A DNA stretch of 64,000 bases from a virus (taxonomy: Duplodnaviria > Caudoviricetes), in the IMG/VR virus record IMGVR_UViG_3300021426_000064, positions 120,342 to 184,341 of that record; one strand, 5' to 3'. Made by a program: the position numbers and the translations under genes. Position 1 is the first letter of the stretch; every line of letters begins with the position of its first letter. The notes under the pieces are model-generated. The model worked only from the letters and a program-made list of their open reading frames with translations. It ran no database searches and was not told where the DNA came from. Positions 5,371-43,523 of this stretch are shown one piece after another.

Positions 5371-5673
5371 ATGACAAAAATCATTCCTATCGGAGAAAAG
5401 CTTCTGATTAAACCGGAAGTAAAAAACGATAAGCAGACAGCTTCCGGTATTGTAATTCCCGAAACATCTGTGGATAAGCCGCAGATTGGCGAAGTAGTGG
5501 CTGCTGGCGAAGGCCGCATCCTGGAAAATGGTACAATGATGCCGCTTACGGTTAAAGTCGGCGACCGAGTTCTTTTCCGCAAATTCGCAGGAACAGAAAT
5601 TAAAATCGACAAGGAAGACGATGTTCTTCTGCTGGTAACAGAACGCGATATTCTGGGTATCATCCAGAAATAA
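5371..5673 (+). CDS. groES: co-chaperonin GroES
   Basis: PIGEKLLI, TASGIVIP, GEVVAAGEG, VKVGDRVLF, ERDILGII. Confidence 0.95.
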   Translation: MTKIIPIGEKLLIKPEVKNDKQTASGIVIPETSVDKPQIGEVVAAGEGRILENGTMMPLTVKVGDRVLFRKFAGTEIKIDKEDDVLLLVTERDILGIIQK

Positions 5674-5730: not shown

Positions 5731-6306
5731 TTGCAATCTAATAATCAAAACATCAATCATCTCGAATTTTGGGCCAACCAGAAAGATATTTTGACGGGCA
5801 CCTTGAACGCGATGCAGGCTGAAAGACTGGAGAACGCTGTAAAGAAGCTCTATTATCCTGAATTGCAGCAGTTTGTTGTTCTGGTTCTGACCCGTAAGGT
5901 TGAAGAAGATGGCGAAATCGAAGATGCCTTGGGCGCATTTGAGTTAGGCGTAAGATACTTTACCGAGCGCGGGTATTACTACGAAATGGCCCCCAATAAG
6001 CAGACGTGCACATTCTTAGCGTCGCTCCTTCTGCATAACGTATACTTCAATCACCATATCCATAACGCTTTTGATTGGCTCAGAGTTTTCAAACTCCGTG
6101 ACGAAACCGAAGGCCTGGCTTATGCGCTTTATGAAATAATGGAATATAATGACCGCGGCATGTTTGAATTTGTATATCAGAATGTTGAAGCTCAGCTGGG
6201 CGAAGCAATGCCAACACCGGGCAATCGTCCGGTTCGTGGTCAGAATACGGAGCATTTCTGGAACGTGCTCTGGTTCTATTATCATGGCACACATTCGAAA
6301 TGGTAA
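5731..6306 (+). CDS. hypothetical protein (degenerate HD-like fold?)
   Basis: 191-aa ORF with RBS GGAGG; ASLLLHNV resembles the HD-domain AALLHD motif. Confidence 0.6.
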   Translation: MQSNNQNINHLEFWANQKDILTGTLNAMQAERLENAVKKLYYPELQQFVVLVLTRKVEEDGEIEDALGAFELGVRYFTERGYYYEMAPNKQTCTFLASLLLHNVYFNHHIHNAFDWLRVFKLRDETEGLAYALYEIMEYNDRGMFEFVYQNVEAQLGEAMPTPGNRPVRGQNTEHFWNVLWFYYHGTHSKW

Positions 6307-7828: not shown

Positions 7829-8882
7829 AACTAAAGAAACTGTGTGGATAATCTTCTGTGATTGGAAAATAACCAATAGAAAGAAGACTACCACCATAAA
7901 AAAGAGAAAGAAACTTTCTGAAGACGTCATTGTGCGAGACGCCGATAAGACCCAGATTTTTGAAAATGGTTTTGTAACCATAAGAACTGTTTTTAAGGAA
8001 GAAGCAGATTATCTCTGGGATTTGTATCAGCACGAAGATGAATGGCGCGAGATTGACGAACTTGTGCACCAGTATCAAGGACAGTTTGAGGAGGGTGCTA
8101 CGGAAGAAGCTCGCCGCATCGCAAATGAAGCGGGTACGGAACTCTTAAACAGATTCCAGCCGCTGTTTAAAAAATACGTGATACTTCTTAAAAATGGCCA
8201 GATCAATTTCCACAACAGCGAGCAGCGTCAGTTTGTTCGTCTGTTTATCCAGGAACTGCATTTGCAAAAGGCTCTAAGCCGAAAAAATCCTGGCCGGGAT
8301 TATCAGGAACAGATTACAGCCCGGTTTAATTTCTTAATCGAGGGCTATGGACACCAAGATGAAGACGAAATCTACGATGATATGCGGGTTATCTTCTTCA
8401 TGCTTGTTAAACGATACAAAGATGTTGGCCGCAGTTTTTGCTGCTACGTCTACAACGTGTTTAAGTACGAAGTTTGCCGTCATATTCAAAAGTATCAGCG
8501 CAACCCGGCAAACTTTCACTATAAAGTTGCAGAACTCGAGGATAACTGCAAAACAGTCATGGATGACTATTCTTCTATCGAAGATGTTATGTATGAAGAT
8601 GATCAGGGGCTTCCGGATATGACCTGGATTCGCGGAGATACATGCTCGGAAATCTTCCAGCAGTTTACGGACGAAGAACGCCTGATATTCTCGAAGTATT
8701 ATCTGCAGGATTGGAACGATAGTCAGATTGCTCAGCTTCTCGGCATGCACATTAACACGGCAAACCAGAGAAGGAAGAGTATCACCAGACGTTTGTGTAA
8801 AACACTTGGCCTGGATCCAAAGGACATTGTTCGGCATCGCAAATCCGGTAAAAGAGCTATCCTTAATACCGAGGTAGCATAA
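7698..8882 (+). CDS. phage RNA polymerase sigma-70-like factor
   Basis: Region 2-like segment (LLNRFQPL...RSFCCYVY) and region 4 HTH (FTDEERLIF...DSQIAQLLGMHINTANQRRK); true start probably downstream (e.g. GTG 7842). Confidence 0.7.
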   Translation: MLNIFIRMSKSNVSVMSQKKKRGLQQRNVKHARSWHPRRGSQPKTKETVWIIFCDWKITNRKKTTTIKKRKKLSEDVIVRDADKTQIFENGFVTIRTVFKEEADYLWDLYQHEDEWREIDELVHQYQGQFEEGATEEARRIANEAGTELLNRFQPLFKKYVILLKNGQINFHNSEQRQFVRLFIQELHLQKALSRKNPGRDYQEQITARFNFLIEGYGHQDEDEIYDDMRVIFFMLVKRYKDVGRSFCCYVYNVFKYEVCRHIQKYQRNPANFHYKVAELEDNCKTVMDDYSSIEDVMYEDDQGLPDMTWIRGDTCSEIFQQFTDEERLIFSKYYLQDWNDSQIAQLLGMHINTANQRRKSITRRLCKTLGLDPKDIVRHRKSGKRAILNTEVA

Positions 8883-26096: not shown

Positions 26097-26615
26097 ATGT
26101 TAACCCTACCTCAAATAATAAAAGACTTATTGTCTAAAGCTAAAACCATTAGTAATAATATCACAGAAACTTATGTTAAGAATTTAATCACTACGGAAAT
26201 AGAGCGCTCTATCTCTTCTTCTACTGATGGGCCATTATATTTAGCTATTAAAAACGCGGCTTTTACCAACCTTCCTCCCAAGATTGGTTATGGCAAAGAA
26301 AAGACGCTTACAATCACCCCCATCGGGGGACAATTAAAAGTAAATATCCCCTCGCAGGCAATATACTTAGGTGGATTCGGCAGCATTATCCCCGCACAAA
26401 CGATAAGCCTGCCAGCTAATCAGGATAATTACATTTATGTGGTCCGCGACGCCGCCGACTATACAAAAGTAAACTTTGAGATTTACGACCACTTACTTGG
26501 CGGAAAAGATAAAGATATCCACTTTACCCGTATTCTTTGCGCCCGTTTTAAGACGAATGGTTCTAAGGTTATTGAACAGGAGGCGTTCGAGACAGCGAAC
26601 TATTCCTGTTTTTAA
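26097..26615 (+). CDS. tail-associated protein, minimal family B member
   Basis: Shares MLTLP..IKDL, NLPPKIGY and IYLGG...NYIY blocks with the next two genes. Confidence 0.7.
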   Translation: MLTLPQIIKDLLSKAKTISNNITETYVKNLITTEIERSISSSTDGPLYLAIKNAAFTNLPPKIGYGKEKTLTITPIGGQLKVNIPSQAIYLGGFGSIIPAQTISLPANQDNYIYVVRDAADYTKVNFEIYDHLLGGKDKDIHFTRILCARFKTNGSKVIEQEAFETANYSCF

Positions 26616-26636
26616 CAATATGCATGGAGAGATTTT

Positions 26637-29189
26637 ATGTTAACGCTACCATTAATCTTAAAAGATTTAAAGAATTCTATAGGAATAGCGTACACTACGG
26701 TTACAAACGCCACCTTCCTAAATCGCATTAAAAATCGCATTAAGGAATCCGTCAACACGAATTCCTCATCTGGTGAAATATACAACGCTGTTAAGGATGC
26801 AGCGTTTACCAATTTGCCGCCCAAAATCGGCTATCTCGACGAAAAGACTGTCCCGATGTACGCTGCTTACAATATGAGCAACATGGCCGTGACCGACTTA
26901 CCTTGCTGGATTACTTCGGACTTGGAAGGGCGAGAGATTACCTATTTTAGAGCGTCTCAGGACGGAGCGCATGGCCTTCAGATATATCGCGCCTTTAGAA
27001 GTAACTTATCTGACACGAACGGCTATACTGTAGAAAATCAGCCACTAGCAATAACGATTGATGGCGTAGATACAAAGTTTAATCGTGTATATGGTATCTC
27101 TAACGATTATATTGTCTTACAGGCAGAAAATGGAAAACGTTACCACTTTGCTACCTACTATTCTTCCAATACGGACAACTGGAAGTTAATGCGAGAAGTT
27201 ACTCGTTTTAATAGCTACGGCGATGTAATGGATATCCTTTGGTTCGATTCAGTAAAAAGATACCTTGTTGTATGCCAAACCGGACAGGGAATGGTATATC
27301 TCGTTGCAGATGAAAATCTGAACGAAATGTATCGCGATATGGTTTTTGACTTTACGCAGTTTCACCATAGTGGCAAACCAACCTGGACGTATCATTATAG
27401 CACGTATGGCAATACAGCTTCCGCAGCATACATACCAGACCAGAACCGGCTGGCAACCGTATTCCGAATGGATGCGAATGTCAGAGAAAACGGCTTTGTC
27501 ATTTACAACTCGGATATGGCGCATCATCCATTGTATTGTAATACCATCAGTAATTTTACCCCAGACAAACTACTGACAAATCATTACTTCGCTACGGCGC
27601 AATGGGATACCCCATTAGCCACTTATTACGATGCGGCAAAGTGGGATTGGTGGGGCGATAATACGGTTAAGATGGCTACGGGATTAACCAGCCGTGGCAC
27701 AGAATACTGCCAATATGACTCGCTGAATAAAATGTTTTATTACACGCATGGTGTTCGCGACTGGGCCGGCGTATATATCAAGCGTATCGCCGTTGAAAAC
27801 CTAAGTTCAAGGGCTGGCACTCGTTTTTTGGATGACAACGCCGGACAAGGATGGAACTGGCAAACACCAGACACTTCTCCGTGGGCCAAGCAAACATATG
27901 CCCCTTCCGTGATGTATGACTCTATCGTTTTACGCGCGCAGTCTAACAAGTACGGCGGTGCGTGGAATAATATTATTATTGCGCCGGAGACGACATCCAA
28001 TGCAAATATACTGGCTGTTACGGCAGGCTCGTGGGCTGTAGGCGGTGGCGATATAACAAATATTGACTGGGCTGCAGGGTATGGGCGTTATTCCTGCACG
28101 AAGGAAAACTTCAATGCTAAAGATGGCGTGTCATGGTATCAAATTCTGGAAGAGAATGGGTACTACAATGTTTACCGTCTAGATTATAAAGCTCGTAAGG
28201 ATCAGGTTGGCAATACTTACAACGACAATGTGTATCGCCCCGCAAACCCTATAGCTAAATTTAAAAAGACTCTTAACTTTGTTGGAGGCATAACGTCATT
28301 TGGCTCTTGGGCTTTTAGAAGCGCATCTTTTGGCGGCGGTAATAAGCTCATCATCTTCGGGCGCATTTCAAGCAATTATAAATGTGTGAAGAATAGTGAA
28401 GGCAAGTACGTTCCGCAAGACGAGAACGCTATGCCGGCCTATTATTTTATCTCGGAAGATGGAAGCTATTACAAGGTAGATTTACCGCAAAACATGCGCG
28501 ACTGGTATTTATCTGAAGCAAGTGACCGATGGCCATATATCCGAAATCCAGATTGGGTTAACCGTACGCCCTTCCTGGATAGTGACGGTCTGACGCTCTA
28601 TTATAATAGTCATGAATTCTATCATGGCAATGGCGATTACTGCTTCGCTGGTTGGAGAGTAATTTTTTCTTCCGACCTTAAGACTGCTACAAAAGTTGAT
28701 TCTGTAGCTGCAGGTGATGGCACATGGTGTGGCATCGAAGTTCTTGGTTGGAATAAGCGCTTCGGTTATTATCGTACTCGCACCAGAAACCGTACAGGCT
28801 CTTTAATCGATACCAGCGCTACAAGCCCGATTAATGTCATTAACCTTGGCGGTGACGTAAAAACATATACCATCAATAATAGTGGCTCGGTAGGTCTAAT
28901 CGCTTATATTCAGGCAACGCCTATTTATCTCGGCGGTTATTACAGCGTACTGCCTGCTACGGAAGTATATCTAAAAGCCAATAGTGACAATTACATTTAC
29001 CTATCCAGAGATAAATTGGACTACCAGAAAATAAACGTAGAGAATTACGACCATTTGCTGGGGGCACAGAATAACGATATGGGCATTAACTTCTCCCGTA
29101 TCCTTATCTCGAAAATAACTACGGATAATAAAGGCGCTACGAGCCAGGAGTATTTTAATATCGATTATTACGGAGCAAGCAAGTCATGA
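26637..29189 (+). CDS. large beta-rich receptor-binding/tail protein (family B)
   Basis: 850 aa; family B termini around an aromatic, beta-rich insert. Confidence 0.7.
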   Translation: MLTLPLILKDLKNSIGIAYTTVTNATFLNRIKNRIKESVNTNSSSGEIYNAVKDAAFTNLPPKIGYLDEKTVPMYAAYNMSNMAVTDLPCWITSDLEGREITYFRASQDGAHGLQIYRAFRSNLSDTNGYTVENQPLAITIDGVDTKFNRVYGISNDYIVLQAENGKRYHFATYYSSNTDNWKLMREVTRFNSYGDVMDILWFDSVKRYLVVCQTGQGMVYLVADENLNEMYRDMVFDFTQFHHSGKPTWTYHYSTYGNTASAAYIPDQNRLATVFRMDANVRENGFVIYNSDMAHHPLYCNTISNFTPDKLLTNHYFATAQWDTPLATYYDAAKWDWWGDNTVKMATGLTSRGTEYCQYDSLNKMFYYTHGVRDWAGVYIKRIAVENLSSRAGTRFLDDNAGQGWNWQTPDTSPWAKQTYAPSVMYDSIVLRAQSNKYGGAWNNIIIAPETTSNANILAVTAGSWAVGGGDITNIDWAAGYGRYSCTKENFNAKDGVSWYQILEENGYYNVYRLDYKARKDQVGNTYNDNVYRPANPIAKFKKTLNFVGGITSFGSWAFRSASFGGGNKLIIFGRISSNYKCVKNSEGKYVPQDENAMPAYYFISEDGSYYKVDLPQNMRDWYLSEASDRWPYIRNPDWVNRTPFLDSDGLTLYYNSHEFYHGNGDYCFAGWRVIFSSDLKTATKVDSVAAGDGTWCGIEVLGWNKRFGYYRTRTRNRTGSLIDTSATSPINVINLGGDVKTYTINNSGSVGLIAYIQATPIYLGGYYSVLPATEVYLKANSDNYIYLSRDKLDYQKINVENYDHLLGAQNNDMGINFSRILISKITTDNKGATSQEYFNIDYYGASKS

Positions 29190-31585
29190 TGTCATTAGCG
29201 CAAACAATAAAGCATTTAAAAAATACGATAACGAATTACACTAACTTTATCAATAGCAAGTCTATCGAGAACTTCGCTACCACTAAGATAGTCAATTATA
29301 TTAACGGAACTGAAGGCGGCGCAAAATCTATCCGCAATATGATTAAAAATAGAACGTTTAAAAATTTGCCGCCTAAAATTGGTTACTTCAATGAAACCAC
29401 TGTACCGTTAATTGCTAACTTCAATATGTCGATTAATGCGGATGCTCCGTGGGTAATTTCGGACGACCAGGGACGAGAGCTAATGTATTTCCCTGCGAAG
29501 GGGAGTCCTACGGACTCGGTTAAGGTATTCAGAGCATATCGTATGAGCACAGGTTCAGGCTTCATCTATGAAAACGAACCGATAATTCCAGGATATCTTG
29601 AGAACGACGGCAAATATCTAACCAACATACGTGGACTAGGCAATCAATACATGGTTGCTATCACAACGGGCGGAAGGGTTCATATTATTAATACTTTTGG
29701 TGAACCGGATACATGGACGTTAGAAGCAGATATTACCGATTTATACAACTCTGTTCCAGATATTCGCCTGAGTGTTATCTACTTTAAGGAATATGGTACG
29801 ATTTACATTCCCGGCACCGTAGGAGACGGCCATAACATTGGAGGCCGATTATACAGAGTGTCTACTGGCGAGCTAATAAAGACAGATAAAATCTTTGATT
29901 TTGTACAAGTAATTGAAGAGCAAAACTCAAACATAAAAACGATGTATGCTGAAATAGGAGACGCTGCCGCGGTTTATAACGAAGCAACGAGCGAAATAGC
30001 TTGGCTTGGACGTAGCTATATTCAATGGTACAACTCGGATAACTCGGTAAGTGCAAATTATCATTCCATGTTAGTGCTGTGCGACTGCCCCAAAGAGCAT
30101 TTTATGGATGGACGTGGAACGTTAGTCAACAAGATACCAAACAGCGAATATAAAATACAAGCGCACAAAAGAGGGTTATGCCCGCGAGGAGATAGCGGAA
30201 TGAGGCACGCTACATACGACTCAATGGAAAAGGTAATTCGAACCGTTTATCGATATCAGAGTTCAGATTCAATTGATTTGTTTACCAGAAGCGCTACATC
30301 TTCAGTAAGTCATGCCTGTGATTACTTCTTAGGTGGACTTGTCACATCTGGTATTCAAAGCTCTGATGCTGCGCCATGGGCTAAACGAATGATGCAGCCA
30401 GTGGTCTATAATGATGACACATATTTGTATGGCATAAGTAAGAAATATGGCGGACAGCGTATCCATGTGGATTTTGTGACAGACGGCAACGGATTGTGCA
30501 ATATAACAGCGGGAACGTGGTGGCTGTCCGGGTCGTACGGGGATTGCGGAGATTTGTCCCTACCTCTGATCTCCTGTATTAAGACAGGAAACTCGTCTAA
30601 GTTTTATTACACCGACGGCAGTAATATTGCGAGAGAGATTCGCACAGAAAGCTTTACATCGGATGATTATGCGCGAAATGGTAGAAGATACTTGGTTGAC
30701 ACAGATATTAAAGCGCCGGGGATACCGTCTGGTTATTTCATTAAATCGAGGATGTATAATCCTAAGTGGAATAAATGGTTCTTTATATCCGAAAAGAGCG
30801 GGACGGCTTTGGCTGGTGATACTTTTCTATTAGAATATGATATCACAACTGGAGCATGGACGGAGCATTGGGATGAACGACCACAGTCGTGGCTGGATGC
30901 TGCACAAGCCTCTTTGAGTAGTCTGGGAAATTATTCGGGATGTGGCGTATCATCAAACGCGTTTATCGATGACGACGGTACTATGTATTTTAGGGTATGC
31001 TTCAATTTTATCGGCGGCTCTGGCAATGAGCATCTGATTAAGTTAACTCGCAACGGGAATAACTATACGATGACTCCCGTGGGTGGCGCGGTAATGTCCG
31101 GCACTTACGCTTCCAACCATCATATGTTTGGCTGGAATAACAAGTATCATTACTTCTTTGCGTGGGGGTCAGTAGTAGGAACTACGGAATCTCGAATTTA
31201 TTCTACTAGGCATTGGGGAGATTCGCCAGACAAGCCTAACGGCGCAAAGTCATTATTTGAAGACGGTGATTACTATACTTGGCGTTTTGTATGTGCCAGC
31301 GCTACTGGTATGGTTTGTTACCTACAGGATACACCGGTATTTTTAGGCGGTTACTTCTCAACGGTTCCCGCTAAGGAAATCCCCCTTAAACCGAATTCTG
31401 CTAACTATATTTATTTCCATAGAAATAGTGATGATTACAAGGTAGTAGACGTAGAGGTAACACAGTCGCCGCGAAATGATGTGGACGGTTTTAACCGTAT
31501 CTACCTTACCAAGGTGGTAACAAACGCCGATGGTCCTGTATCGCAGGAATATAATCAGATAGATAATTATCATAAGAAAAGATAA
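29186..31585 (+). CDS. large beta-rich receptor-binding/tail protein (family B)
   Basis: 799 aa; paralog of 26637 (PW...D..GRE..YF.A, PWAK, KYGG, GWN.K). Confidence 0.7.
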   Translation: MMSLAQTIKHLKNTITNYTNFINSKSIENFATTKIVNYINGTEGGAKSIRNMIKNRTFKNLPPKIGYFNETTVPLIANFNMSINADAPWVISDDQGRELMYFPAKGSPTDSVKVFRAYRMSTGSGFIYENEPIIPGYLENDGKYLTNIRGLGNQYMVAITTGGRVHIINTFGEPDTWTLEADITDLYNSVPDIRLSVIYFKEYGTIYIPGTVGDGHNIGGRLYRVSTGELIKTDKIFDFVQVIEEQNSNIKTMYAEIGDAAAVYNEATSEIAWLGRSYIQWYNSDNSVSANYHSMLVLCDCPKEHFMDGRGTLVNKIPNSEYKIQAHKRGLCPRGDSGMRHATYDSMEKVIRTVYRYQSSDSIDLFTRSATSSVSHACDYFLGGLVTSGIQSSDAAPWAKRMMQPVVYNDDTYLYGISKKYGGQRIHVDFVTDGNGLCNITAGTWWLSGSYGDCGDLSLPLISCIKTGNSSKFYYTDGSNIAREIRTESFTSDDYARNGRRYLVDTDIKAPGIPSGYFIKSRMYNPKWNKWFFISEKSGTALAGDTFLLEYDITTGAWTEHWDERPQSWLDAAQASLSSLGNYSGCGVSSNAFIDDDGTMYFRVCFNFIGGSGNEHLIKLTRNGNNYTMTPVGGAVMSGTYASNHHMFGWNNKYHYFFAWGSVVGTTESRIYSTRHWGDSPDKPNGAKSLFEDGDYYTWRFVCASATGMVCYLQDTPVFLGGYFSTVPAKEIPLKPNSANYIYFHRNSDDYKVVDVEVTQSPRNDVDGFNRIYLTKVVTNADGPVSQEYNQIDNYHKKR

Positions 31586-31603
31586 AGGATAAAGTGAGTA
31601 TGT

Positions 31604-32197
31604 ATGGATACCAAAAACTATAAGATTGATGTCAAAACATCGAGAACTGTAGAAGCTTTGTTTTTGGAATTAAATGTCTACAAAGAAAGACGAAAATTGA
31701 CTTCTATCACTAAGAAAATAGAGTCTGACTTTGAGGCTGTCTTATTAACGAATGAAAAACATCAGTTAAATCGTGGAGTATTATGGGCTACGCCGAAAGA
31801 AGCAATGCAGGTGGCCCCGAAAATAATTGAACAGCGGTTGGTTCTTGCGGAGGATTTAACAGACCTTTCCATGACATTTTCAAACCTTAGCTCTTTAGAA
31901 TATGTAGATCTATCAGACTGGGATACTTCAAGAGTTACAAATTTTGATTCGATGTTTAACCACTGTGATAACCTGAAGAGAATTGACGGTGTAATTGATT
32001 TATCTAGTATTGACAAAGTGTTTATTCCATACAAAAGCAACCCTTTAGGCAATATGTTTTATAGTTGTAAGGCATTAGAGAGCAAGGTTGTTATAAAAAA
32101 TCCGCCATCAGATTACCTTGATATAGAAGACGGAAGAATCAAATGGGAAAAATATACCCAATTATCGTTAGACAAATTTGAATTCATTTTTGAATAA
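31604..32197 (+). CDS. DUF285/BspA-like LRR protein (family C N-terminus)
   Basis: LDLSDWDTSRVTNFDSMF..C-type repeats. Confidence 0.75.
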   Translation: MDTKNYKIDVKTSRTVEALFLELNVYKERRKLTSITKKIESDFEAVLLTNEKHQLNRGVLWATPKEAMQVAPKIIEQRLVLAEDLTDLSMTFSNLSSLEYVDLSDWDTSRVTNFDSMFNHCDNLKRIDGVIDLSSIDKVFIPYKSNPLGNMFYSCKALESKVVIKNPPSDYLDIEDGRIKWEKYTQLSLDKFEFIFE

Positions 32198-32206
32198 GGA
32201 GAAAGT

Positions 32207-32875
32207 ATGAATACTAAAACTTATAACGTCAATTTAAAAGCTAAGAAAACTGAACTCGGTGGAGAACTATCCATTAACGTCGTAAAGTCAAGCGACGTTA
32301 TCAGCAGGCGCAAGTCGTATGATGCCAATATGGCATTAATCATACTTCAGCAACATCACTGGATGGACATGATTTACCCCGATGATTACGACACTATGAC
32401 TAAATTGCGCGACGAATTTATGCTTGATCCATCCATGGATGATCTAGGCACCATGTTCAGTGGCTGTGTCAGCCTAGAAGAAATTGACACCCATTTGTTT
32501 AACACTTCCAATATTAAACGCATGGATGGCATGTTTCAAAACTGCGCCTCTGTAAAAAGATTAGATCTGCGTCATTTTGACGTAAGCAAGGTAGAAGATA
32601 TGACCAGTATGTTTGAAGGATGTTCTGAATTAGAGAGTCTAGATTTTTCAGGCTGGGACACTTCCAAAGTTCAAAACTTTAACCGGCTATTTTTTGATTG
32701 CCCCAATCTAAAGGAAATAAAGGGGGTGTTGGATTTATCATCTGCCATATCCAACGCTTATTGCTTTGCCGACAATAAGAATAACGTCTTGAAGTTAAAG
32801 ATAAAGAATGTGCCCAGTGGTTTTAATATCAAAAGGACTGGGCTTAATGAGAACCAACTGGAAATAGTTTCCTGA
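32207..32875 (+). CDS. DUF285/BspA-like LRR protein (family C N-terminus)
   Basis: FNTSNIKRM..MF, FDVSKVEDM..MF, WDTSKVQNF repeats. Confidence 0.8.
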   Translation: MNTKTYNVNLKAKKTELGGELSINVVKSSDVISRRKSYDANMALIILQQHHWMDMIYPDDYDTMTKLRDEFMLDPSMDDLGTMFSGCVSLEEIDTHLFNTSNIKRMDGMFQNCASVKRLDLRHFDVSKVEDMTSMFEGCSELESLDFSGWDTSKVQNFNRLFFDCPNLKEIKGVLDLSSAISNAYCFADNKNNVLKLKIKNVPSGFNIKRTGLNENQLEIVS

Positions 32876-32912
32876 GTTCTACATTCCGATGTAGCTGAAC
32901 TTTGTATCCACA

Positions 32913-32932
32913 GGTAATATGTCCCATGTAAG
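32913..32932 (+). promoter_or_regulatory. candidate phage late promoter GGTAAT-N9-GTAAG
   Basis: Same spacing at 21621-21639 and 35782-35800; variants at 17014, 20979 and 40043. Confidence 0.55.
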
Positions 32933-33012
32933 GTGGTGCGAGGCGGCAATGTTCTTGCCGCCAGCGTTAATCCTTACGCGTAAACATCTATACTATATAA
33001 GGAGAAATGTAC

Positions 33013-33996
33013 ATGTCTCTTACAAACCTCTCTCAGATTAAAGGTCTGAAAAATCTTCGCAGCGATGTAGACTTGCTCTTAAAGTCCTATGATGCTGCAA
33101 AAGTAGTTACCCAAATCGCTAAAGCTGAAGGCGAAGGCAACTACAATGTCGAGGAACTGCTCGAAGCATTGAAGTCCAAACTGGATGCCATCGCTGGCAC
33201 CGAAGGCGAAGGCCAGTCTCTCGACGCCTTAAAAAAGGCCATTGATGGCCTGAAGAATAAGGCTATTAAGGCTTACACGGGCAATGCTGAAGAACCCGTA
33301 AAAGAATACAAGCTGGCTGAACTGCCTGAAGACGCACTCTTAAAAGGTGAAGAGCTGGATATTACGGCTTACCAGAATGCCTTGGACGCGCTGGTAGCTA
33401 AACTGGCCGCCAATAAGGAACTTATTAACGCTGTTAAAGAGCTTATCGGCGATAAGAGCGTACAGACAAGCATCGAAGAAGCAGTAGCTGAAGTTAATGC
33501 AGCGCTGGCTCTTAAAGGTGACAAGGCCGTAGTTGAAAAGGCCGATGCTGACCTGAAGATTCTGGATACCAAGATTGAAGAGCTGGAAAACAGCACAGTA
33601 GTTGAAGTACAGGACGTTATCGAGCTGGGCGAAGTTCAGGTTGATCTGCCACTTTCCGATTCTCCCAAAGCTCAGGAAGTGCGCCTCTACGTTAATGGTG
33701 CCGTTTATTACGAGAACGATGACTTCACCGTTGACCGCAAGGCTAAGAAGTTGACCTGGACCTCCGCTGATTTTGCTTTGACGAGTGCTATCGCCGCCAA
33801 AGTTACGGCTAAGTATTACGTCGATGCGGGCCTGGGCTTTGATCCGTCCCTCATCCAGATTGACGATTCAAAGATTACTCTAACTCGTGAAGAGCCTGAG
33901 AAGTCCTTTAACGTAACCATCCCGGCTGACTGTACGCTGGAAGTAGTTCCGAGCGATCCTGAAGCTGTTGAAGTAACGGTAACGGAAGTTCAGTAA
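33013..33996 (+). CDS. virion coiled-coil fibre/stalk protein (family A)
   Basis: Paralog of 35886 (MSLTNL.QIKG...KSYDAAKV; DDFTVDR.A.K.TWT). Confidence 0.7.
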   Translation: MSLTNLSQIKGLKNLRSDVDLLLKSYDAAKVVTQIAKAEGEGNYNVEELLEALKSKLDAIAGTEGEGQSLDALKKAIDGLKNKAIKAYTGNAEEPVKEYKLAELPEDALLKGEELDITAYQNALDALVAKLAANKELINAVKELIGDKSVQTSIEEAVAEVNAALALKGDKAVVEKADADLKILDTKIEELENSTVVEVQDVIELGEVQVDLPLSDSPKAQEVRLYVNGAVYYENDDFTVDRKAKKLTWTSADFALTSAIAAKVTAKYYVDAGLGFDPSLIQIDDSKITLTREEPEKSFNVTIPADCTLEVVPSDPEAVEVTVTEVQ

Positions 33997-34085
33997 TTTC
34001 ACCTCAAATGAATTAAATAATAATATCATATAGCGGAGTTAAAATAATAATCGCTTATGACTTATAAATAAAAGGATGATTTTAA

Positions 34086-35129
34086 ATGAGTAGAAAACTT
34101 AAGGATTATAATGTGTTAGTAAAAGCGCTGGGCAATTTCCCATTGGTTAGCTTAGATGTTAATGTTCTTAGAAAAGGTGAGAACGTCTTTAAGTTAACTA
34201 AATGGATTGAGAGTAAAGGTTTTTTTCCGAAAAAAGGAAAAGCTCTTAACGATTACACCTGGGACGAAATATCTCAGATTGCTCAGGCTGGCGTAGGGGA
34301 AGATTATTTTGATGTCGGAGACTGCAAGGAAATCACTCTCAATGGCAAAATCGGCGATTACCTGACACTTTCCAATCAGAAGCTTTGTGTGTTTATCTTG
34401 GATTTCAACCATCCTGAAAATGGGGTGGCGGAGAATAATATTATCTTTGGCGGATTTAAGACGGCGTTATCTGGCGGTAAAGATGTTGCGCTATGTGACT
34501 CTAAATATAATACTGCATCCATGGACGGCAGTATATGTTTCAATATGAGCCACAAGACAACTGCCACATCAGGCAACGATCAGTATGGATATAATCATGG
34601 CGGCTGGAAAGGCTCTGACCTTCGTTATGATATCCTCGGCGCCACCAGCACGGCTCCAAGCCAGTACAACAAAGACAAAACCACTTCCAATGTTGGCTAC
34701 GATGCTACGGCTGCTACGTTGACTTCTCCAAAGGCGAATACTTTCTTGGCAGCCCTGCCCTCAGACCTGAGAAGTGTTTTACGCCTTCGTACACATTATG
34801 TAGATAACAAAGGTAATGAATCTAATGTGGATGCTAACGTAACTGCCGTGACAGACGCTGTATCGCTCTTAGCTGAGCCCGAGATTTTCAGTTCGAGTTC
34901 CTATGCAAATCAGTACGAGAAAAATCACCAAACGCGGATGAAGTATTATGCCAACGGCAATTCAACAGTGAAATACAATCACAGTAACACTGGCTCCGCT
35001 GTCCGTTGGTGGGAGTGTTCTCCTTACTACAACTACTCGACCTGCTTCTGTTTTGTGGACTCCAGCGGCTACGCCGACTACAGCTACGCTCGTCGCTCTT
35101 GTGCGTTGGCCCCCGCTCTCAAAGTTTAG
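34086..35129 (+). CDS. DUF6273-like/CLec-fold receptor-binding protein, DGR target (family C N-terminus)
   Basis: LNDYTWDEIS.I...G.GEDYFDVGD, GGWKGS.LR, LLAEPEIF, WWECSPY...FCFV...G.A....A..S.ALAP C-terminus. Confidence 0.8.
   Translation: MSRKLKDYNVLVKALGNFPLVSLDVNVLRKGENVFKLTKWIESKGFFPKKGKALNDYTWDEISQIAQAGVGEDYFDVGDCKEITLNGKIGDYLTLSNQKLCVFILDFNHPENGVAENNIIFGGFKTALSGGKDVALCDSKYNTASMDGSICFNMSHKTTATSGNDQYGYNHGGWKGSDLRYDILGATSTAPSQYNKDKTTSNVGYDATAATLTSPKANTFLAALPSDLRSVLRLRTHYVDNKGNESNVDANVTAVTDAVSLLAEPEIFSSSSYANQYEKNHQTRMKYYANGNSTVKYNHSNTGSAVRWWECSPYYNYSTCFCFVDSSGYADYSYARRSCALAPALKV
34995..35129 (+). repeat. DGR variable region (VR) candidate
   Basis: Codons at variable positions end in C/T (TAC TAC AAC TAC; GAC TCC AGC; GAC TAC AGC TAC), as expected for AAY-derived codons. 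Confidence 0.7.
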
Positions 35130-35144
35130 TCTTTAGTCCATAAA

Positions 35145-35174
35145 AGTCCCGCGCCCCGGCAGGGCGCGAGGACT
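35145..35174 (+). other. GC-rich hairpin downstream of the VR (DGR target-recognition hairpin candidate)
   Basis: AGTCC-CGCGCCC-CGGCA-GGGCGCG-A-GGACT, no U-tract, ~15 nt after the stop. Confidence 0.6.
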
Positions 35175-35203
35175 GCTCATAATCTACAAGGAGGAAGTTA
35201 TTA

Positions 35204-35629
35204 ATGCGGTACATCACCATAAAACGCTACAGACGTGACGGTGTAGGCGGGCACTTCAACCTTCCATACGGCACACCCGTAGCAGAACGTGAAGGCGTCC
35301 TTTACCACGACAATCGTCCTATATGTGCGGCATGTTCATACTCGTCCCACAAGCACTTTGCCCACGACGATGATGGACATGGACAAGAACGTGGCAAGTT
35401 ATCCCACGGCATAATCAAAAAGCTAGGCGGTACTCATTGCCCCGGGGAACCTACTCCAGAATGGGATGCTATCGAAAATGACGAAATCGCCAATAGCTAC
35501 CGCAGAAAAGACCATGTAACATCATGGCTGTGGGACGATTCATTTTTCAAAGCACCGATAAAAGATCTGCAACATATCGCGGTCAAAATAGGACTTATAA
35601 AAGAGGGAGAAAAGGTACAAAATAATTGA
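35204..35629 (+). CDS. hypothetical protein
   Basis: 141 aa, RBS GGAGG; NLPYGT, HFAHDDDG.G.ERG.L and WLW..SFF.A.I.DL resemble proteins I recall near Firmicute phage DGRs (unverified). Confidence 0.65.
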   Translation: MRYITIKRYRRDGVGGHFNLPYGTPVAEREGVLYHDNRPICAACSYSSHKHFAHDDDGHGQERGKLSHGIIKKLGGTHCPGEPTPEWDAIENDEIANSYRRKDHVTSWLWDDSFFKAPIKDLQHIAVKIGLIKEGEKVQNN

Positions 35630-35885
35630 TACCGAAACTAACAGTATTCAAGAAGAAACGCAAAAATAAAGCGATTATTCTTTTGGGTTTGCCCTGGCTT
35701 CTGCGTCGGCTAATAACCCAGCTCATACAAAATACTTTCCTGTGTTCTGCGGTTAGATATAGCTAATCTCATTATCCACAGGTAATGTATACGATGTAAG
35801 AGAAAAGCTCGGGCGGTCTATTTTAAGAGGCCGCCGACGCTATCTCTTAATAAAAATTCTATATTATATAAAGGAGAAATGTGAC

Positions 35886-37370
35886 ATGTCACTCACAAAT
35901 CTTGCTCAAATTAAAGGTGGTCTTCAGCTTCAGGCTGACGTGCAGGCACTTCTGAAGTCCTACGATGCTGCCAAGGTTCTGACTAAGGTTGCCAAGGCTG
36001 TAGGCGAAGGTGAAGAAGCCGCCAACTATAACGTCGAAGAGCTCCTGACAGAACTCAAAGCTAAGATTGATGCTATCGCTGGCAACGGCGAGGAAGGCGA
36101 CGCGGCCTCCCTGACATCTCTAGCAGCTGCTATCGATGCTCTTAAGGACAAGAAACTCAAGGATATGGTTCGCGTTGAGTTCAGCATCGCTTCTGGCGTA
36201 GCTACTCTGCCCGAAAACTTTGATACTCTTGTACCGGCCTGCGACAAAACGAAGGCTCTGCCGGTTTACACAGCTGACAACGAAGTCGTATTCAACGAGA
36301 ACGGTGAACAGCTGACCATCGTTCCGGAAACTGGCGTACTGAACGGCGTACCTTCCGAAATCGACGCTGAAGCATCCGCTGCCGCTGAAGATGGCAAAGC
36401 TGTTTACAAGGCTAAAGCTGATTTCCAGGCCAAGATTTTCCCTGTTGGTGAATGGAAGCTGGCTGACCTGCCGACCGAAGCTCTGCTCGACAACAACGAA
36501 ATGCAGCTGGTTGCCTACAAGACGGCTCTTGACAAGCTCGTTATCGACCTGACAAAGGACGAAAACCTGATTGCTCAGGTTAAGGAACTGGTAGGCGAGC
36601 AGGCTGTACAGACTCAGCTCGAAGAGGCCCTGAAGGCTGTTAACGAAGCAGTAGCTGCTAAAGCTGAAAAGACGGCAGTAGATGAACTGGCCGGCACGGT
36701 AAGCGACATCGATGAGCGCGTAAAGGCCATCGAGGGAACACAGGATGAGGCGGTTTCCGATAAGGTTGCCGTTACCGCTCCTGTTACTGAGTTTACTCTG
36801 TCCAAAAAGCCTAACGCTAAGCTGGTTGAGGCCGTTATCAACCACCTCGTATACCGCGAAGGTGATGACTTTACGGTTGACCGCGACGCTCAGAAAGTAA
36901 CTTGGACGCTGACGGCCGCTAATGATGGCTTCGATATCGATGCTGATCTGACGGACGCTGTACGGTTCAACTATTTTTTTAAGGTCGCCGGTGGGGTAAA
37001 TCCTGCACCGGCTCCTGCGAATAAAGGCTGGGAAGTAACCGTAAACGTTCCCAAGAGTGCAACAACGCTCGACCTTCAGAAGGTTTTGACGGCTGAACAG
37101 CTCGCGGATATCACTGACGAAAACGCTGCCGGCCCGGAATCTGATGGCGTAGGCCGTAAGATTCGTTGCTATGTGAACGGCGTAGAACTCAAATGGGACT
37201 ACGAAAACACTGGCGATGAAGAAGTAGAGGCTGCTCTCGTAGCTTCCGGCCTAACCAAGGGTAAGGAATTCGTATTCGGTACTTACGAACTGGATAGCTC
37301 GAAGATCCTGAACTTCAGCTGCGGCTGGAGCGAAACCGGCTGCGACGTAAAAATCGTTTACCAGCCGTAA
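35886..37370 (+). CDS. virion fibre/stalk protein (family A)
   Basis: 494 aa, strongly biased codon usage, paralog of 33013. Confidence 0.75.
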   Translation: MSLTNLAQIKGGLQLQADVQALLKSYDAAKVLTKVAKAVGEGEEAANYNVEELLTELKAKIDAIAGNGEEGDAASLTSLAAAIDALKDKKLKDMVRVEFSIASGVATLPENFDTLVPACDKTKALPVYTADNEVVFNENGEQLTIVPETGVLNGVPSEIDAEASAAAEDGKAVYKAKADFQAKIFPVGEWKLADLPTEALLDNNEMQLVAYKTALDKLVIDLTKDENLIAQVKELVGEQAVQTQLEEALKAVNEAVAAKAEKTAVDELAGTVSDIDERVKAIEGTQDEAVSDKVAVTAPVTEFTLSKKPNAKLVEAVINHLVYREGDDFTVDRDAQKVTWTLTAANDGFDIDADLTDAVRFNYFFKVAGGVNPAPAPANKGWEVTVNVPKSATTLDLQKVLTAEQLADITDENAAGPESDGVGRKIRCYVNGVELKWDYENTGDEEVEAALVASGLTKGKEFVFGTYELDSSKILNFSCGWSETGCDVKIVYQP

Positions 37371-37444: not shown

Positions 37445-37981
37445 ATGGCATACGATAAAACAAATGATTTGTTTCCGATTCAGAATGATGTTTTAACGAC
37501 ACTTCTGACAAATAATACGAAAATATCCAAGTTAAATGGCCTAAAAACTGATGGTAAGTCGGTAGTGAAGGCGATCAACGAATTGTTGGGTAAGTTAAAT
37601 ACCGCCCTCAGCCAGGTAACTACGGCCAGTCAGGAAGCTAATGCGGCAAAAGACGGCGTGGCTGGAGTTAAAACGGAAGTTCAGACAATGGTTACTGAGA
37701 TTGTAACCCAGAAGATGACGGAGATTGTATCCGGTGGCATCCAGAACGACGAATTTACTTGCGAGGACAATCAGACGGTATTCACGTTATCCAAGACACC
37801 TATCGATAAAGATAATATCTTGTTCTATATTAATGGGGTAAAGTACAGGAAAGTTGATTGCCGTTATGACGAATCGACAAATACTGTTGAATGGGTTAAT
37901 ACGGACATTGATGAAAATCATCCGCATCCGTTCTGCTTAAAAAGCACAGATGCCGTGTCAGCCGTATATATGAGTAAGTAA
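37445..37981 (+). CDS. tail fibre-associated protein
   Basis: LKTDGKSVVKAINEL fibre repeat; QTVFTLSKTP...FYINGV. Confidence 0.7.
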   Translation: MAYDKTNDLFPIQNDVLTTLLTNNTKISKLNGLKTDGKSVVKAINELLGKLNTALSQVTTASQEANAAKDGVAGVKTEVQTMVTEIVTQKMTEIVSGGIQNDEFTCEDNQTVFTLSKTPIDKDNILFYINGVKYRKVDCRYDESTNTVEWVNTDIDENHPHPFCLKSTDAVSAVYMSK

Positions 37982-37998: not shown

Positions 37999-39573
37999 AT
38001 GCTTTTAGATGCTAAGCAAATGGATCCTAAATTTGAGCTTTGGTATAAGGAGTTCATGGGAACTCGTTTTCCTGAAATCGTTGATTATGAATTGGTCTTT
38101 AACGATAATGGATATGTGGCGGAACAGGACGAAAAGGGCCGCTACATTGTAAATATGGATAAGGGCGTTAATCTATTGATGAGTAAACTCCCGCAAAAAG
38201 TTAACGCATTCTATAAGAACAAGGCTGCTGGAGAACTGAATATCCATTGGGATGCAGCTGTTCGCAATTATAACCCAAACAAGAGTGGCGAGCAGATTTT
38301 GCGCGCAGGCCTTGAAGTTGGGGTATATAATCCCAAGAACTTGACGCCGGAACTGGTTATGCTTATTGCTCGCAGCGAAAAGCTCTCCCTGCAGAACTGG
38401 TGGGAAAATGGCGCCAAAGTTAAGGAAGTAAGCTATCTTAATGGCACGAAGGCAGAAGACTTCGCTGATTTGGAAGATTACTATATCACCAATATGAACT
38501 ATGCTTTTGCTGGCGCAAGTGAAGTAGAAAGCCTTCCTGAACTGGCTACCGAGAAAGACAATTCTCTTACCAGCTTGGCTTACGCCTTCGATGGCTGCGC
38601 AAAGCTGAAGGCTGTTCCGTCTATCGCAACCGTTGGTGTAACCGATATTGAAGGCGCATTTCGTGGATGCGAATCCCTGACAGATCTGAGCGGTATGGAT
38701 TTGAGCAATAGTTATATGATTGCTTACGCATTCAGTGGCTGTAAAAATCTGAAGAAGCTCCCGAATCTGTCTCGTTTAGCTACGGCAACTCCGAGCAGCT
38801 TTGTCGACGCTTTCCGTGGTTGCTCCAGCCTTCCGGCAGTGTTCCCTTATACGATTAACGTATCCAGCGTAACAAACCGCAACAACTTTGGCGGCATGTT
38901 CGAGGGCAGTTCCGTCAAGGAAATCACTGTTCGTTACGACGGTGAAGCTATCCCTGAATACATTTGCCCGCTCTTTATGGGTAGTGCATTGGAAAAAATC
39001 ACCATCGTGAATGCTCAGGGTGAGGTTCGTGAAGTTCGTACCCAGGCAAATAATCCGTCTATGATTTCTTACTTAGCTGCAGGAGATAGCAAACTGATTG
39101 TTCCGGCAGGTGTTTCTTCCATGAAGGTTGCTCTGGTATCTGGCGTAAGCTATAGCTATAGCACGGTAGATATCAAACACATCGCTGTTAAAAATAATCC
39201 GTCCTCGATTAAGCGCGGCGAAGAAGAAGTAATCACTTCTAACAAGGCAGCTGGAGAACGCGGTCATTACTTTGACTACATGGGCAGCCAGGAACAGCAT
39301 GGTGGTTTCCCGGCCATGTTTGATGCTCAATACGAAGACTATAGCAACGGTCAGGTTTATTGCTGCGGCGTAGGCGGCGGAAAGCAGCTCACAAAGTATT
39401 GCCATGCTTGGGGCGCATTGGAAAACAGCTTCGTACAGGATACGGTAGCAGTTACTCCGGGTGAAGAACTGACGATTAGCGTCGGCAATGGTAGCGCTTC
39501 TGGCGACTGCACGTTCAATAAGAAACCGGGCAATGGCTTGTATAATGGCTACGTTTTAGTAGAGTTCCAGTAA
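37999..39573 (+). CDS. LRR (BspA-like) virion adhesin with Gly-rich C-terminal domain
   Basis: YAF.GC..L..LP repeats; VPAGVSSMKV...VTPGE.LTISVG. Confidence 0.7.
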   Translation: MLLDAKQMDPKFELWYKEFMGTRFPEIVDYELVFNDNGYVAEQDEKGRYIVNMDKGVNLLMSKLPQKVNAFYKNKAAGELNIHWDAAVRNYNPNKSGEQILRAGLEVGVYNPKNLTPELVMLIARSEKLSLQNWWENGAKVKEVSYLNGTKAEDFADLEDYYITNMNYAFAGASEVESLPELATEKDNSLTSLAYAFDGCAKLKAVPSIATVGVTDIEGAFRGCESLTDLSGMDLSNSYMIAYAFSGCKNLKKLPNLSRLATATPSSFVDAFRGCSSLPAVFPYTINVSSVTNRNNFGGMFEGSSVKEITVRYDGEAIPEYICPLFMGSALEKITIVNAQGEVREVRTQANNPSMISYLAAGDSKLIVPAGVSSMKVALVSGVSYSYSTVDIKHIAVKNNPSSIKRGEEEVITSNKAAGERGHYFDYMGSQEQHGGFPAMFDAQYEDYSNGQVYCCGVGGGKQLTKYCHAWGALENSFVQDTVAVTPGEELTISVGNGSASGDCTFNKKPGNGLYNGYVLVEFQ

Positions 39574-41973: not shown

Positions 41974-42537
41974 ATGCTTAGAAGAATACCAGGATTAAGT
42001 AAAATGTTTAACGGCGGGACGCGTACAGTGGGTGATATGCCAAACCTTTTCCAGTTCCCGGAGTATGCGCCAGGAGACGCATTAAAACAGTATAAAGGTG
42101 GCGGCTCGTATCTGTTTAACGCTAAACTGCGGGAAGGGATTCCTCTCGACGCACAGGACAAGGCACTACAAAGAGGCTTAGATCGTGACCTGAACGCTCT
42201 ACCAGACTATCAGGAGCCGACATTCAGGTCGTATGATTTCCTTGACCAGGAAAGTTTAAGCGAATTTTTAGAGCAGCATAAACCCGGCCATATGGTGCAG
42301 TATCCTGCTTACACATCATCCGCCAAAAGTCCTAATGCATACTACGCTCCGAACGGAACGGGCATGCAGGCACTGATGAAAATTAATGGCAAACATGGAA
42401 AAGACTTAGCACACGTAGAATCCGCCTCAAACAATGAGCAGGAAGTGCTGTTTGGACGAAAATCTATGTTCAGGGTTAATAATATTGGGTATTCCCCTGA
42501 GATGAAGACTTATTTTGGCGAAATGGACGAAATATAA
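41974..42537 (+). CDS. R-S-E clade ADP-ribosyltransferase (VIP2/C3-like)
   Basis: N..LR, TFRS (R), YTSSAK (STS-like), NEQEVLF (ExE). Confidence 0.85.
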   Translation: MLRRIPGLSKMFNGGTRTVGDMPNLFQFPEYAPGDALKQYKGGGSYLFNAKLREGIPLDAQDKALQRGLDRDLNALPDYQEPTFRSYDFLDQESLSEFLEQHKPGHMVQYPAYTSSAKSPNAYYAPNGTGMQALMKINGKHGKDLAHVESASNNEQEVLFGRKSMFRVNNIGYSPEMKTYFGEMDEI

Positions 42538-43523
42538 TCCGCCACCAAACTTTTATACTTGTCAAGAACAGAGCATGATATATGGCTAGGTATCTCGTAT
42601 TGTGCTCCAAATATATTACCCGCAATGGAGGCAACGGTATCGCTGTCTCCATTTATATTTGCGGCGCGATTTATACAAGTATATATCCTATCGCCTGAGA
42701 GTATATGATAGAGAGCGAGGCCCAAAGCATTTGGTCCAATCCAGGCATCTCCAAAAGCGCCATAAAAAGTACGAAACGCAGATGTGCTTTTAGTATCGGC
42801 ACACGTTATGGCGTTGTATACGTAGTTATACGTTTCATTGAGGGGAAGCGTCATAAGTTCTCCAATACGTTCAAGATAGGACTTGTAAAATTCCAGGGCT
42901 GATAACAGAGCCGTTTTTACATCCATGTTATCACGAAGCAAGAAAAAGATAATTAGCGAAAATACGCCCGCGCTGCGCCATGCTTCTTTATGACCATGCG
43001 TAATTGCCGCGCACCGCATGGATAACTCAAAAACATATTCCGGCGGCTCGTTAATCAGAAAGCCGAACGGGGCAGAACGCATAACAGTGCCGTTACCCAG
43101 GCTATCGTTGTATTGTTTATCCAGTGTTCCCATGCAACCGGAGCGCAGGGAGTCAATACAGGCATGGCCGGGAGCCCGCATAGTATATAAATCATCTATC
43201 ATCCATAGCTCACCTACGTGGGCTATTTTTTCGTCTATGGCTCCGGGGCCATACTGCGTATTAAACCAACGGAGATATGATTCGTACATAATTTGCACAC
43301 GCTCATCCATCGATTTACCCTGACTGAGTGCTAACCCCTCAAGCGTAAACAATGTCATCTGGGTATCATCTGTGATGGCATCTCCTGGATTTAGCTCCTG
43401 CTTACCCTGCTCGCCATATTGCGATCTGATTTCATCCATAGTCATCATTTCTAGGTCAGAACCAAAAGCATCTCCATAGGCCCCGTATAAAATACATCGA
43501 TACATTCTATCCTGTTTAGTCAT
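42510..43523 (-). CDS. ADP-ribosylglycohydrolase (DraG/ARH family)
   Basis: GAYGDAFG, TDDTQM, GNGTVMR, ITHGH, GDSDT..SIAG. Confidence 0.92.
   Translation of the reverse strand: MTKQDRMYRCILYGAYGDAFGSDLEMMTMDEIRSQYGEQGKQELNPGDAITDDTQMTLFTLEGLALSQGKSMDERVQIMYESYLRWFNTQYGPGAIDEKIAHVGELWMIDDLYTMRAPGHACIDSLRSGCMGTLDKQYNDSLGNGTVMRSAPFGFLINEPPEYVFELSMRCAAITHGHKEAWRSAGVFSLIIFFLLRDNMDVKTALLSALEFYKSYLERIGELMTLPLNETYNYVYNAITCADTKSTSAFRTFYGAFGDAWIGPNALGLALYHILSGDRIYTCINRAANINGDSDTVASIAGNIFGAQYEIPSHISCSVLDKYKSLVADYISSISPK

Follow-up and report, generated by a model that had tools for sequence, protein, structure and literature searches.

Unrelated head proteins of a gut phage share an N-terminal tag that probably docks on the C-terminal tail of a common fibre stalk

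How are head proteins of different folds fastened to a phage fibre, when what they have in common is a short stretch at the N-terminus? The question is raised by the IMG/VR record IMGVR_UViG_3300021426_000064 (Duplodnaviria; Caudoviricetes), of which positions 120,342 to 184,341 were analysed. This stretch of 64,000 nucleotides, hereafter the window, closes a 184-kb record that CheckV estimates to be 78% complete. Between 31604 and 35129 of the window, three genes for putative adhesin heads (heads 1, 2 and 3) stand around a gene for a fibre protein (stalk A). A preliminary description, made from the letters alone, had proposed that the tag common to the heads completes an unfinished immunoglobulin (Ig)-like domain at the end of the stalk by donor-strand complementation, so that alternative heads, one of them diversified by a diversity-generating retroelement (DGR), dock on a common stalk. 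The tag at the start of each head and a matching segment at the end of the stalk, which we call the socket, exist, are terminal and conserved, and occur together. As detailed below, the core of the proposal holds up in our analysis, in that the tail stays unfolded alone, co-folds with a tag and is always terminal and accompanied by tagged genes, while its details concerning the Big_2 family and the DGR are not supported. We consider it very likely that the tag is a virion-docking module in the broad sense, and on balance probable that the heads dock by completing the half-domain at the C-terminus of stalk A.

The three open reading frames (ORFs) begin with the N-termini that had been quoted for them, and the common tag is recovered from the ORF translations, from a motif scan and from an independent profile. 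When the motif was written as a loose regular expression and run over all six-frame ORFs of at least 60 residues in the 184-kb record, there were 3 matches only, all at residue 7-8 of an open frame. Moreover, a hidden Markov model of the tag built from other phages only, and scanned against 2982 six-frame segments of the record, picked out exactly these three N-termini (E values of 1.3e-12, 9.7e-9 and 6.9e-8), with the next best match at E 2.7; the similarity of the tags is far beyond chance. With about 45 residues the tag extends beyond the ~25 first noticed: its two strands are followed by a third short one and by a conserved K-x-x-E-x-D stretch. The bodies behind it differ, as had been claimed: what was read as two leucine-rich-repeat (LRR) proteins and a C-type lectin is assigned by Pfam to DUF285/LRR_5, DUF285/LRR_5 and DUF6273, respectively. 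The three tags of this genome are about 25% identical in protein, use different codons and are unlike in DNA, and therefore it is the protein and not a DNA site that is conserved. In the AlphaFold2 (AF2) monomer model of head 2, whose closest solved folds are LRR proteins, the LRR body is predicted with a per-residue confidence (pLDDT) of 80-96 and the tag residues 1-50 with 55-70; the first 18 residues have no secondary structure, and residues 19-38 form a hairpin of their own.

The putative partner of the tag is the last part of stalk A. The protein ends as the preliminary description had quoted it, and the ATG at 33013 given there is the true start because the homologues start there; residue numbers in this text count from the ORF start at 33007 and are thus +2 relative to the true start. 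Stalk A has 24 homologues, and a tblastn search of an annotated phage collection gave no match to it. In an alignment of 17 sequences (stalk A and 16 homologues) the end falls at the same residue throughout, and the mean pairwise identity is 0.76 at the N-terminus, 0.57-0.59 in the middle and 0.75-0.77 over the last 55 residues; the ends are better conserved than the middle, and therefore both ends of the stalk are its constrained parts. The N-terminal part is probably a coiled coil and, by analogy, stalk A is most likely a coiled-coil trimer. This trimeric state we infer, as we do the stoichiometry of the complex, its presence on the virion and its role in host recognition. The AF2 monomer model, built from the 17-row alignment, gives a confident beta domain for residues 198-273 (pLDDT about 80); residues 275-329 show no secondary structure by DSSP and a pLDDT of 33-72, which the shallow alignment could also cause. 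The C-terminus thus does not fold as a complete domain in this model, which is one of the points named in the preliminary description as able to refute its idea had the outcome been the opposite. A profile of the socket has the stalk A tail as its sole match in the 184-kb record, so that by profile scans the record holds exactly one socket and three tags.

The evidence that bears most directly on the joint is a co-fold of the two parts. The modelling first suggested, of the last ~55 stalk residues with each of the three N-termini, was run with stalk residues 196-329 and residues 1-45 of head 2, each with its own shallow alignment. The interface score ipSAE was 0.75 as the median of three runs (0.75, 0.77 and 0.54), against 0.08 for the best of three controls; in a calibration, 58 of 80 solved complexes and 2 of 110 mismatched pairs came up to this mark, counts that are rough, with own alignments used. 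Contacts agreed between the runs at 80% or better, partner pLDDT was at least 59, and that of the tag went up from its 55-70 alone to 78-80 with the socket. The modelled interface joins stalk residues 275-328 to tag residues 2-44 by about 170 contacts. Among the pairs of lowest error, tag residues 5-10 run antiparallel to stalk 299-304, tag 7-11 antiparallel to stalk 322-325, and tag 22-24 lie with stalk 311-314, and the best contacts fall on invariant or nearly invariant residues (F301, V303, L311, V313 and T324 of the stalk; Y6 and V8 of the tag). From the register of the pairing between 322-325 and 7-11 it follows that the last residue of the stalk lies next to the first of the tag and that in the model the chains meet at a hairpin turn, the arrangement to be expected of a single domain severed at a loop.

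The mechanism that we propose on this basis can be described as follows. The last 55 residues of stalk A would be an incomplete beta-sandwich acting as a socket, and the tag of each head would be the plug that supplies the missing strands, its first strand lying antiparallel between the third and the last strand of the stalk and its second strand with the fourth. Stalk and head would then form one domain of two chains, by which the head is fastened non-covalently to the fibre tip, and a phage could carry one to three (or four) alternative heads. The interface between stalk and tag is a modelled one throughout. Of the first reading of the stalk end, as an Ig domain lacking its last strands, the incomplete beta domain is retained, since the tail is unfolded alone in AF2; the Big_2 label is not, and neither is the simple addition of last strands, for the modelled order is interleaved.

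The tail is not the only conceivable site on stalk A. The beta domain before it, residues 199-272, superposes on the XD2/XD3 domains of CBA120 TSP4 in a VIA-align comparison (7rfv_A with Z 7.9 and a root-mean-square deviation of 1.9 Å over 64 residues; 7rej_A with Z 7.7), where a Z below 8 may stand for a common arrangement. These domains of CBA120 are T4 gp10-like branching domains at which partner tailspikes dock (PMC8825819), and in Klebsiella phage KP32 a conserved N-terminal peptide of 29 residues is needed for mounting the receptor-binding protein (RBP) RBP2 on RBP1 and can be transferred to a foreign enzyme domain (PMC13352976), so that XD domains and N-terminal peptides are partners shown by experiment in known systems. 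The tag might be a docking peptide whose site lies elsewhere: trimers of tagged heads would be seated, in the manner of T4 gp10, CBA120 TSP4 and KP32 RBP1, at a trimeric XD2/XD3-like face of stalk A, or on its paralogue stalk B, on a 178-aa protein encoded from 37445 or on a baseplate protein, with the stalk A tail serving as a trimeric tip of its own. Binding of a trimer on a trimer cannot show in a 1:1 co-fold, and the 1:1 model showed no docking of the peptide to the XD-like domain. Against this stands the fact that the XD-like domain was offered in the co-fold and left unused, all confident contacts being on residues 275-328; moreover the tail is better conserved than the XD-like domain and has no structure alone, LRR heads are usually monomers, and the Z value is within the range that the tool calls common. 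We regard docking at such another site as unlikely.

The distribution of tag and socket across other phages gives comparative evidence. When 5.8 billion proteins were searched with the tag profile, 35 clusters came up (E from 2e-14 to 5e-6), in all of which the tag begins at residue 1-4, on source contigs of up to 340 kb. Behind the tag stand bodies of at least three unrelated kinds, including DUF285 LRR, DUF6273, BspA-like LRR and several without a Pfam family, and the tag of the head 3 type keeps 20-38 of 38 residues identical across bodies with no detectable similarity to one another. The tag is separable from the body, and therefore any receptor-binding module behind it would be mountable on the same stalk. 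All stalk homologues with sequence context (L001, L002, L003, L006 and L007) adjoin one to three tagged head genes: three heads all follow the stalk in L002, two precede it and one follows it in L001, L003 and L007 have one head each, and L006 has a tagged protein of 549 aa. In a search of 1.84 billion representative proteins, the socket profile scored high only at extreme C-termini (P0015, P0019 and P0025).

One of these carriers is of a different kind. P0025, a protein of 147 aa found on 21 contigs, has an N-terminal part unrelated to the stalk and lies among non-structural genes such as PhoH and RNase H-like. The related phage G002 also carries a fourth, divergent tag on a BspA-like protein of 254 aa, about 20 kb from the fibre cluster, and this tag and the P0025 socket may be a second cognate pair; the loci concerned are L015 (G002:194571-194762), L010 (6001-6444) and L022 (1483-2247).

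A conserved N-terminus need not be a plug. It could belong to the fold or the maturation of the head itself, as a cap, a chaperone-recognition or an export signal, or be conserved at the level of nucleic acid, for translation initiation or as a recombination site for cassette exchange. The hairpin that head 2 forms by itself in the monomer model would fit the former, and the homopolymer frameshifts described below, which cluster in the tag-coding DNA of related phages, hint at regulation there. Conservation of nucleic acid is at odds with three tags that are alike in protein and unlike in DNA, and a role in the fold of the head with the occurrence of the same tag on unrelated folds and of DUF6273 and DUF285 bodies elsewhere without it; the gain in tag confidence in the presence of the socket is a further argument against this reading. 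We take a tag without a docking function to be very improbable.

Stalk end and tags might also be relics of the fission of stalk-head fusions, with no complementation today, or parts that are rejoined by recoding. In other phages DUF6273 is indeed found covalently on Ig-domain stalks, and one related phage requires a -1 shift to join tag and body. On the other side, each of the heads has its own start codon and purine-rich ribosome-binding site 8-90 nucleotides (nt) after the previous stop, as stalk A has its own start codon and purine-rich site; two of the heads lie upstream of the stalk, and relics would not be the best conserved segments. Homologues with the two halves fused had been suggested as something to look for. 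None was found, neither in the profile search of the 1.84 billion representatives nor, as weak evidence, in a word-indexed search with stalk residues 262-329 among proteins of more than 576 aa. That tag and socket are relics, or parts rejoined by recoding, seems to us very improbable.

Several points weigh against docking by completion of the stalk domain, and they should be taken together. The evidence for it comes from modelling and comparison only. The co-fold score is the model's own confidence, obtained with shallow own alignments, and short beta peptides can land on exposed sheet edges; the co-fold concerns the tag of head 2, and docking of heads 1 and 3 in the same manner is suggested by homology. 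A trimeric stalk could close the C-terminal strands among its own three chains, and stalk A also possesses an XD2/XD3-like domain, the kind of domain at which docking takes place in the branched complexes known so far. The joint domain matches neither Big_2 nor another Pfam family, and the tag did not extend the alignment to Big_2 repeats. Finally, heads 1 and 2 are encoded upstream of the stalk A gene, behind another fibre gene.

As to the fold class of the joint domain, membership in Big_2 is not borne out by sequence: stalk A has no Pfam match at E <= 0.1 and no PHROG family, and Big_2 (PF02368) gave no match at E <= 1 in six frames of the 184-kb record. The distant protein P0034 carries seven Big_2 domains, and the socket matches it in register over the initial 45-50 residues of every 82-residue repeat; the match is weak, with 36 bits summed over 7 repeats and an hhalign probability of 13-18%, and agrees weakly with the earlier impression of Big_2. 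P0034 belongs to the remaining matches of the socket profile, which are giant repeat proteins of mixed beta-sandwich families (DUF11, SdrD_B, DUF5801, MBG and Big_2) at no more than 17 bits per repeat, and the tag profile has no match in those giant proteins. The tag is not recognisable as the end of a Big_2 domain, as an hhalign comparison of paired socket and tag with Big_2 repeats aligned the socket half only and a reversed tag gave the same. The socket profile had no match among PDB sequences, and a feature search of the ESM Atlas for the socket fold gave no usable one. Judged from the models, the joint domain would be a split beta-sandwich that is not assignable to Big_2 by sequence.

Head 3 had been supposed to be diversified by a DGR, and this part of the preliminary description is not sustained. 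It is a protein of the type that DGRs target, with a C-terminal lectin-fold DUF6273 domain, homology to the annotated DGR target of Faecalibacterium phage Taranis, and a 3' end that is like a variable region (VR), adenine-poor and followed by a GC hairpin. Nevertheless neither the 184-kb record nor two related ones (90% and 87% complete) contain a reverse transcriptase (PF00078), and the two related records have no DUF6273 domain either. A template repeat is also absent from the 184-kb record: blastn at word size 7 with 34960-35180 against the record returned the self match only, and none is among the listed direct repeats. Since 22% of the genome is missing, the absence of a DGR is subject to a small doubt. 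Residues 52-347 of head 3 share 35-39% identity with DUF6273 proteins of Faecalibacterium phages, with the tag outside the homology. In these phages the domain is fused to long N-terminal parts or to Ig-domain stalks, in one case with four Big_3 domains. Head 3 resembles such targets as Taranis gp68 in this body, in its VR-like 3' end and in the GC hairpin, and differs from them in being mounted via a tag, not fused to a stalk, and in the lack of reverse transcriptase and template repeat in its record. The most economical view is that the tag acquired a DGR-target module behind it without the retroelement. A gene for 141 aa at 35204-35629 was considered as a DGR accessory protein and rejected, for it has no similarity to the genes that follow DGR targets in Taranis or in Dulem virus 34.

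In relatives, the tag-coding DNA shows breaks of the reading frame. In L003 at 5921-5945, and in the same way in L004 and L005, the single head gene is split, with the tag as a 40-aa ORF with a stop and the LRR body in the -1 frame. The break is at an A6 run. In the frame of the tag it reads A_AAA_AAT, a slippery heptamer of the classical -1 kind, and tag and body would be joined by a -1 slip or by one added A; the same form occurs in contigs of three runs. In L001, 2 of the 3 heads are out of frame in the tag-coding DNA, one at 5490-5560 at a G7 run, where G8 restores the frame (compare the intact P0065), and another at 8094-8125 at an A5 run, where A6 does so (compare P0050). The source runs give the same assembled form at the frameshift sites, while other runs hold diverged relatives, as judged from assembled contigs only. 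The frameshifts of L001 could be phase variation of individual heads, or an assembly error. One may go further and imagine a homotrimeric stalk with three half-domains, each of which takes one monomeric head in any mix of one to four heads, the heads being switched by the length of homopolymer runs or by -1 slippage in or just behind the tag DNA, and the P0025 type extending the connector to another part of the virion. This is speculative and we hold it to be rather doubtful; if true, it would mean combinatorial, heritable but reversible variation of host range without a DGR or an invertase.

The features of the locus are listed in Table 1. The source is a gut phage of roughly 200 kb: the phage's own genes include DNA polymerase III alpha, RecJ, RtcB and helicases, related sequence in public runs comes from animal gut and faecal metagenomes, and the related records are 207-211 kb long and 87-90% complete.

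Table 1. Coordinates of the heads, stalks and associated elements in the window
Feature	Coordinates	Strand	Description
Head 1	31604..32197	+	197 aa; tag 31604-31738 and DUF285 leucine-rich-repeat body; Pfam DUF285 E 6.7e-7; tag profile E 6.9e-8
Head 2	32207..32875	+	222 aa; tag 32207-32341 and DUF285/LRR_5 body; Pfam DUF285 E 3.6e-20
Intergenic element, 71 nt	32862..32932	+	upstream of stalk A; second copy at 35730-35800 upstream of stalk B, 76% identical
Stalk A	33013..33996	+	327-aa fibre protein; N-terminal two thirds helical, then beta domain, then socket
Stalk A beta-jellyroll-like domain	33595..33828	+	residues 197-274; resembles T4 gp10-type XD2/XD3 branching domains
Socket (putative)	33829..33993	+	last 55 stalk A residues (275-329); four to five short strands
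Head 3	34086..35129	+	347 aa; tag 34086-34220 and DUF6273 body; Pfam E 9.3e-8; VR-like 3' end at about 34990-35129
Stalk B	35886..37370	+	494-aa stalk A paralogue; direct repeats D2, D3, D7; ORF translation; homologues P0020-P0024

The fibre genes form a long run at about 21.7-39.6 kb of the window. Stalk B has the N-terminus and the beta domain of stalk A, followed by a linker and a C-terminal domain of its own, covalently attached, in the place of a socket; it represents the covalent version of the stalk A arrangement. The 71-nt element, which precedes both stalk genes, contains a short inverted repeat and, in front of stalk A, has a GC-rich hairpin behind it; it may serve the two genes as a common regulatory or terminator/promoter module. 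A promoter and terminator scan of 31400-36000 gave the same result as for shuffled sequence. Further downstream, 37445-37981 encodes a fibre-like protein of 178 aa, whose C-terminal domain is similar in motifs to the XD-like domain of the stalk and which has a weak match to DUF4183. It is followed, at 37999-39573, by an LRR protein of 524 aa with a glycine-rich C-terminus and no tag, and the two may be another branch of the same appendage with a different connector. Upstream, 26097-31585 holds three tandem paralogues (172, 850 and 799 aa) with N- and C-terminal modules in common (direct repeats D2 and D6), none of which has a Pfam or PHROG family. Just past the lysis genes, at 41974-43523, an ADP-ribosyltransferase-like gene (PF03496) is convergent and overlapping with an ADP-ribosylglycohydrolase gene (PF03747).

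Among known systems the nearest are the branched receptor-binding complexes of KP32 and CBA120, and we class the system of stalk and tag as a variant of that architecture. In common with them it has a carrier, an N-terminal docking peptide, interchangeable bodies and several heads per phage, and with the CBA120 carrier also an XD2/XD3-like domain, a likeness to be taken as a lead with its Z in a range that is possibly common. It differs in that the carrier, stalk A, does not itself include a receptor-binding part and terminates with a half-domain that is unfolded, in that the predicted site is the C-terminal tail and not the XD-like domain, in the modelled 1:1 beta-sandwich of two chains as opposed to a trimer on a trimer face, and in the heads, which are small LRR or lectin modules and not depolymerase tailspikes. 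No sequence relation to those complexes was detected, with no comparison aimed at the KP32 peptide made.

Two further systems can be compared. In chaperone-usher pili such as type 1 and P, an incomplete beta-sandwich is completed by the N-terminal extension of the next subunit. The plug proposed here would likewise lie at the extreme N-terminus and complete a beta-sandwich; unlike in pili, two to three strands would be donated in place of one, the C-terminal socket amounts to about half a domain, no polymerisation is involved and the setting is a phage. Pfam scans of most neighbouring genes contain no chaperone or usher, with no search aimed at them, and none is expected in a phage. The gp38 of the T2/T6/S16 type is a small separate adhesin, the N-terminal part of which sits non-covalently on the distal end of the long tail fibre gp37, and the proposed heads resemble it as small separate proteins that would be held by their N-terminal part at the far end of a fibre. 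The gp38 system differs in having one adhesin per phage, no tag common to unrelated heads and a different fold. A literature search combining strand complementation with phage receptor-binding proteins gave no match, and we know of no earlier example of phage adhesins being attached by strand complementation of a split beta-sandwich.

The host range of phages is set by the mounting of receptor-binding modules on the tail, and the known connector, in which a docking peptide is seated on a branching domain of the T4 gp10-like type, has already been used to re-target Klebsiella phages. The interest of the present finding lies mainly in the mechanism and in a compact natural connector. If the proposed joint is true, tag and socket would offer the engineering of phages and proteins a compact and genetically separable pair, the equivalent in nature of split-domain tools; moreover, they would represent a second connector, unrelated to the gp10 type, which would explain the free swapping of LRR and lectin heads in large gut phages.

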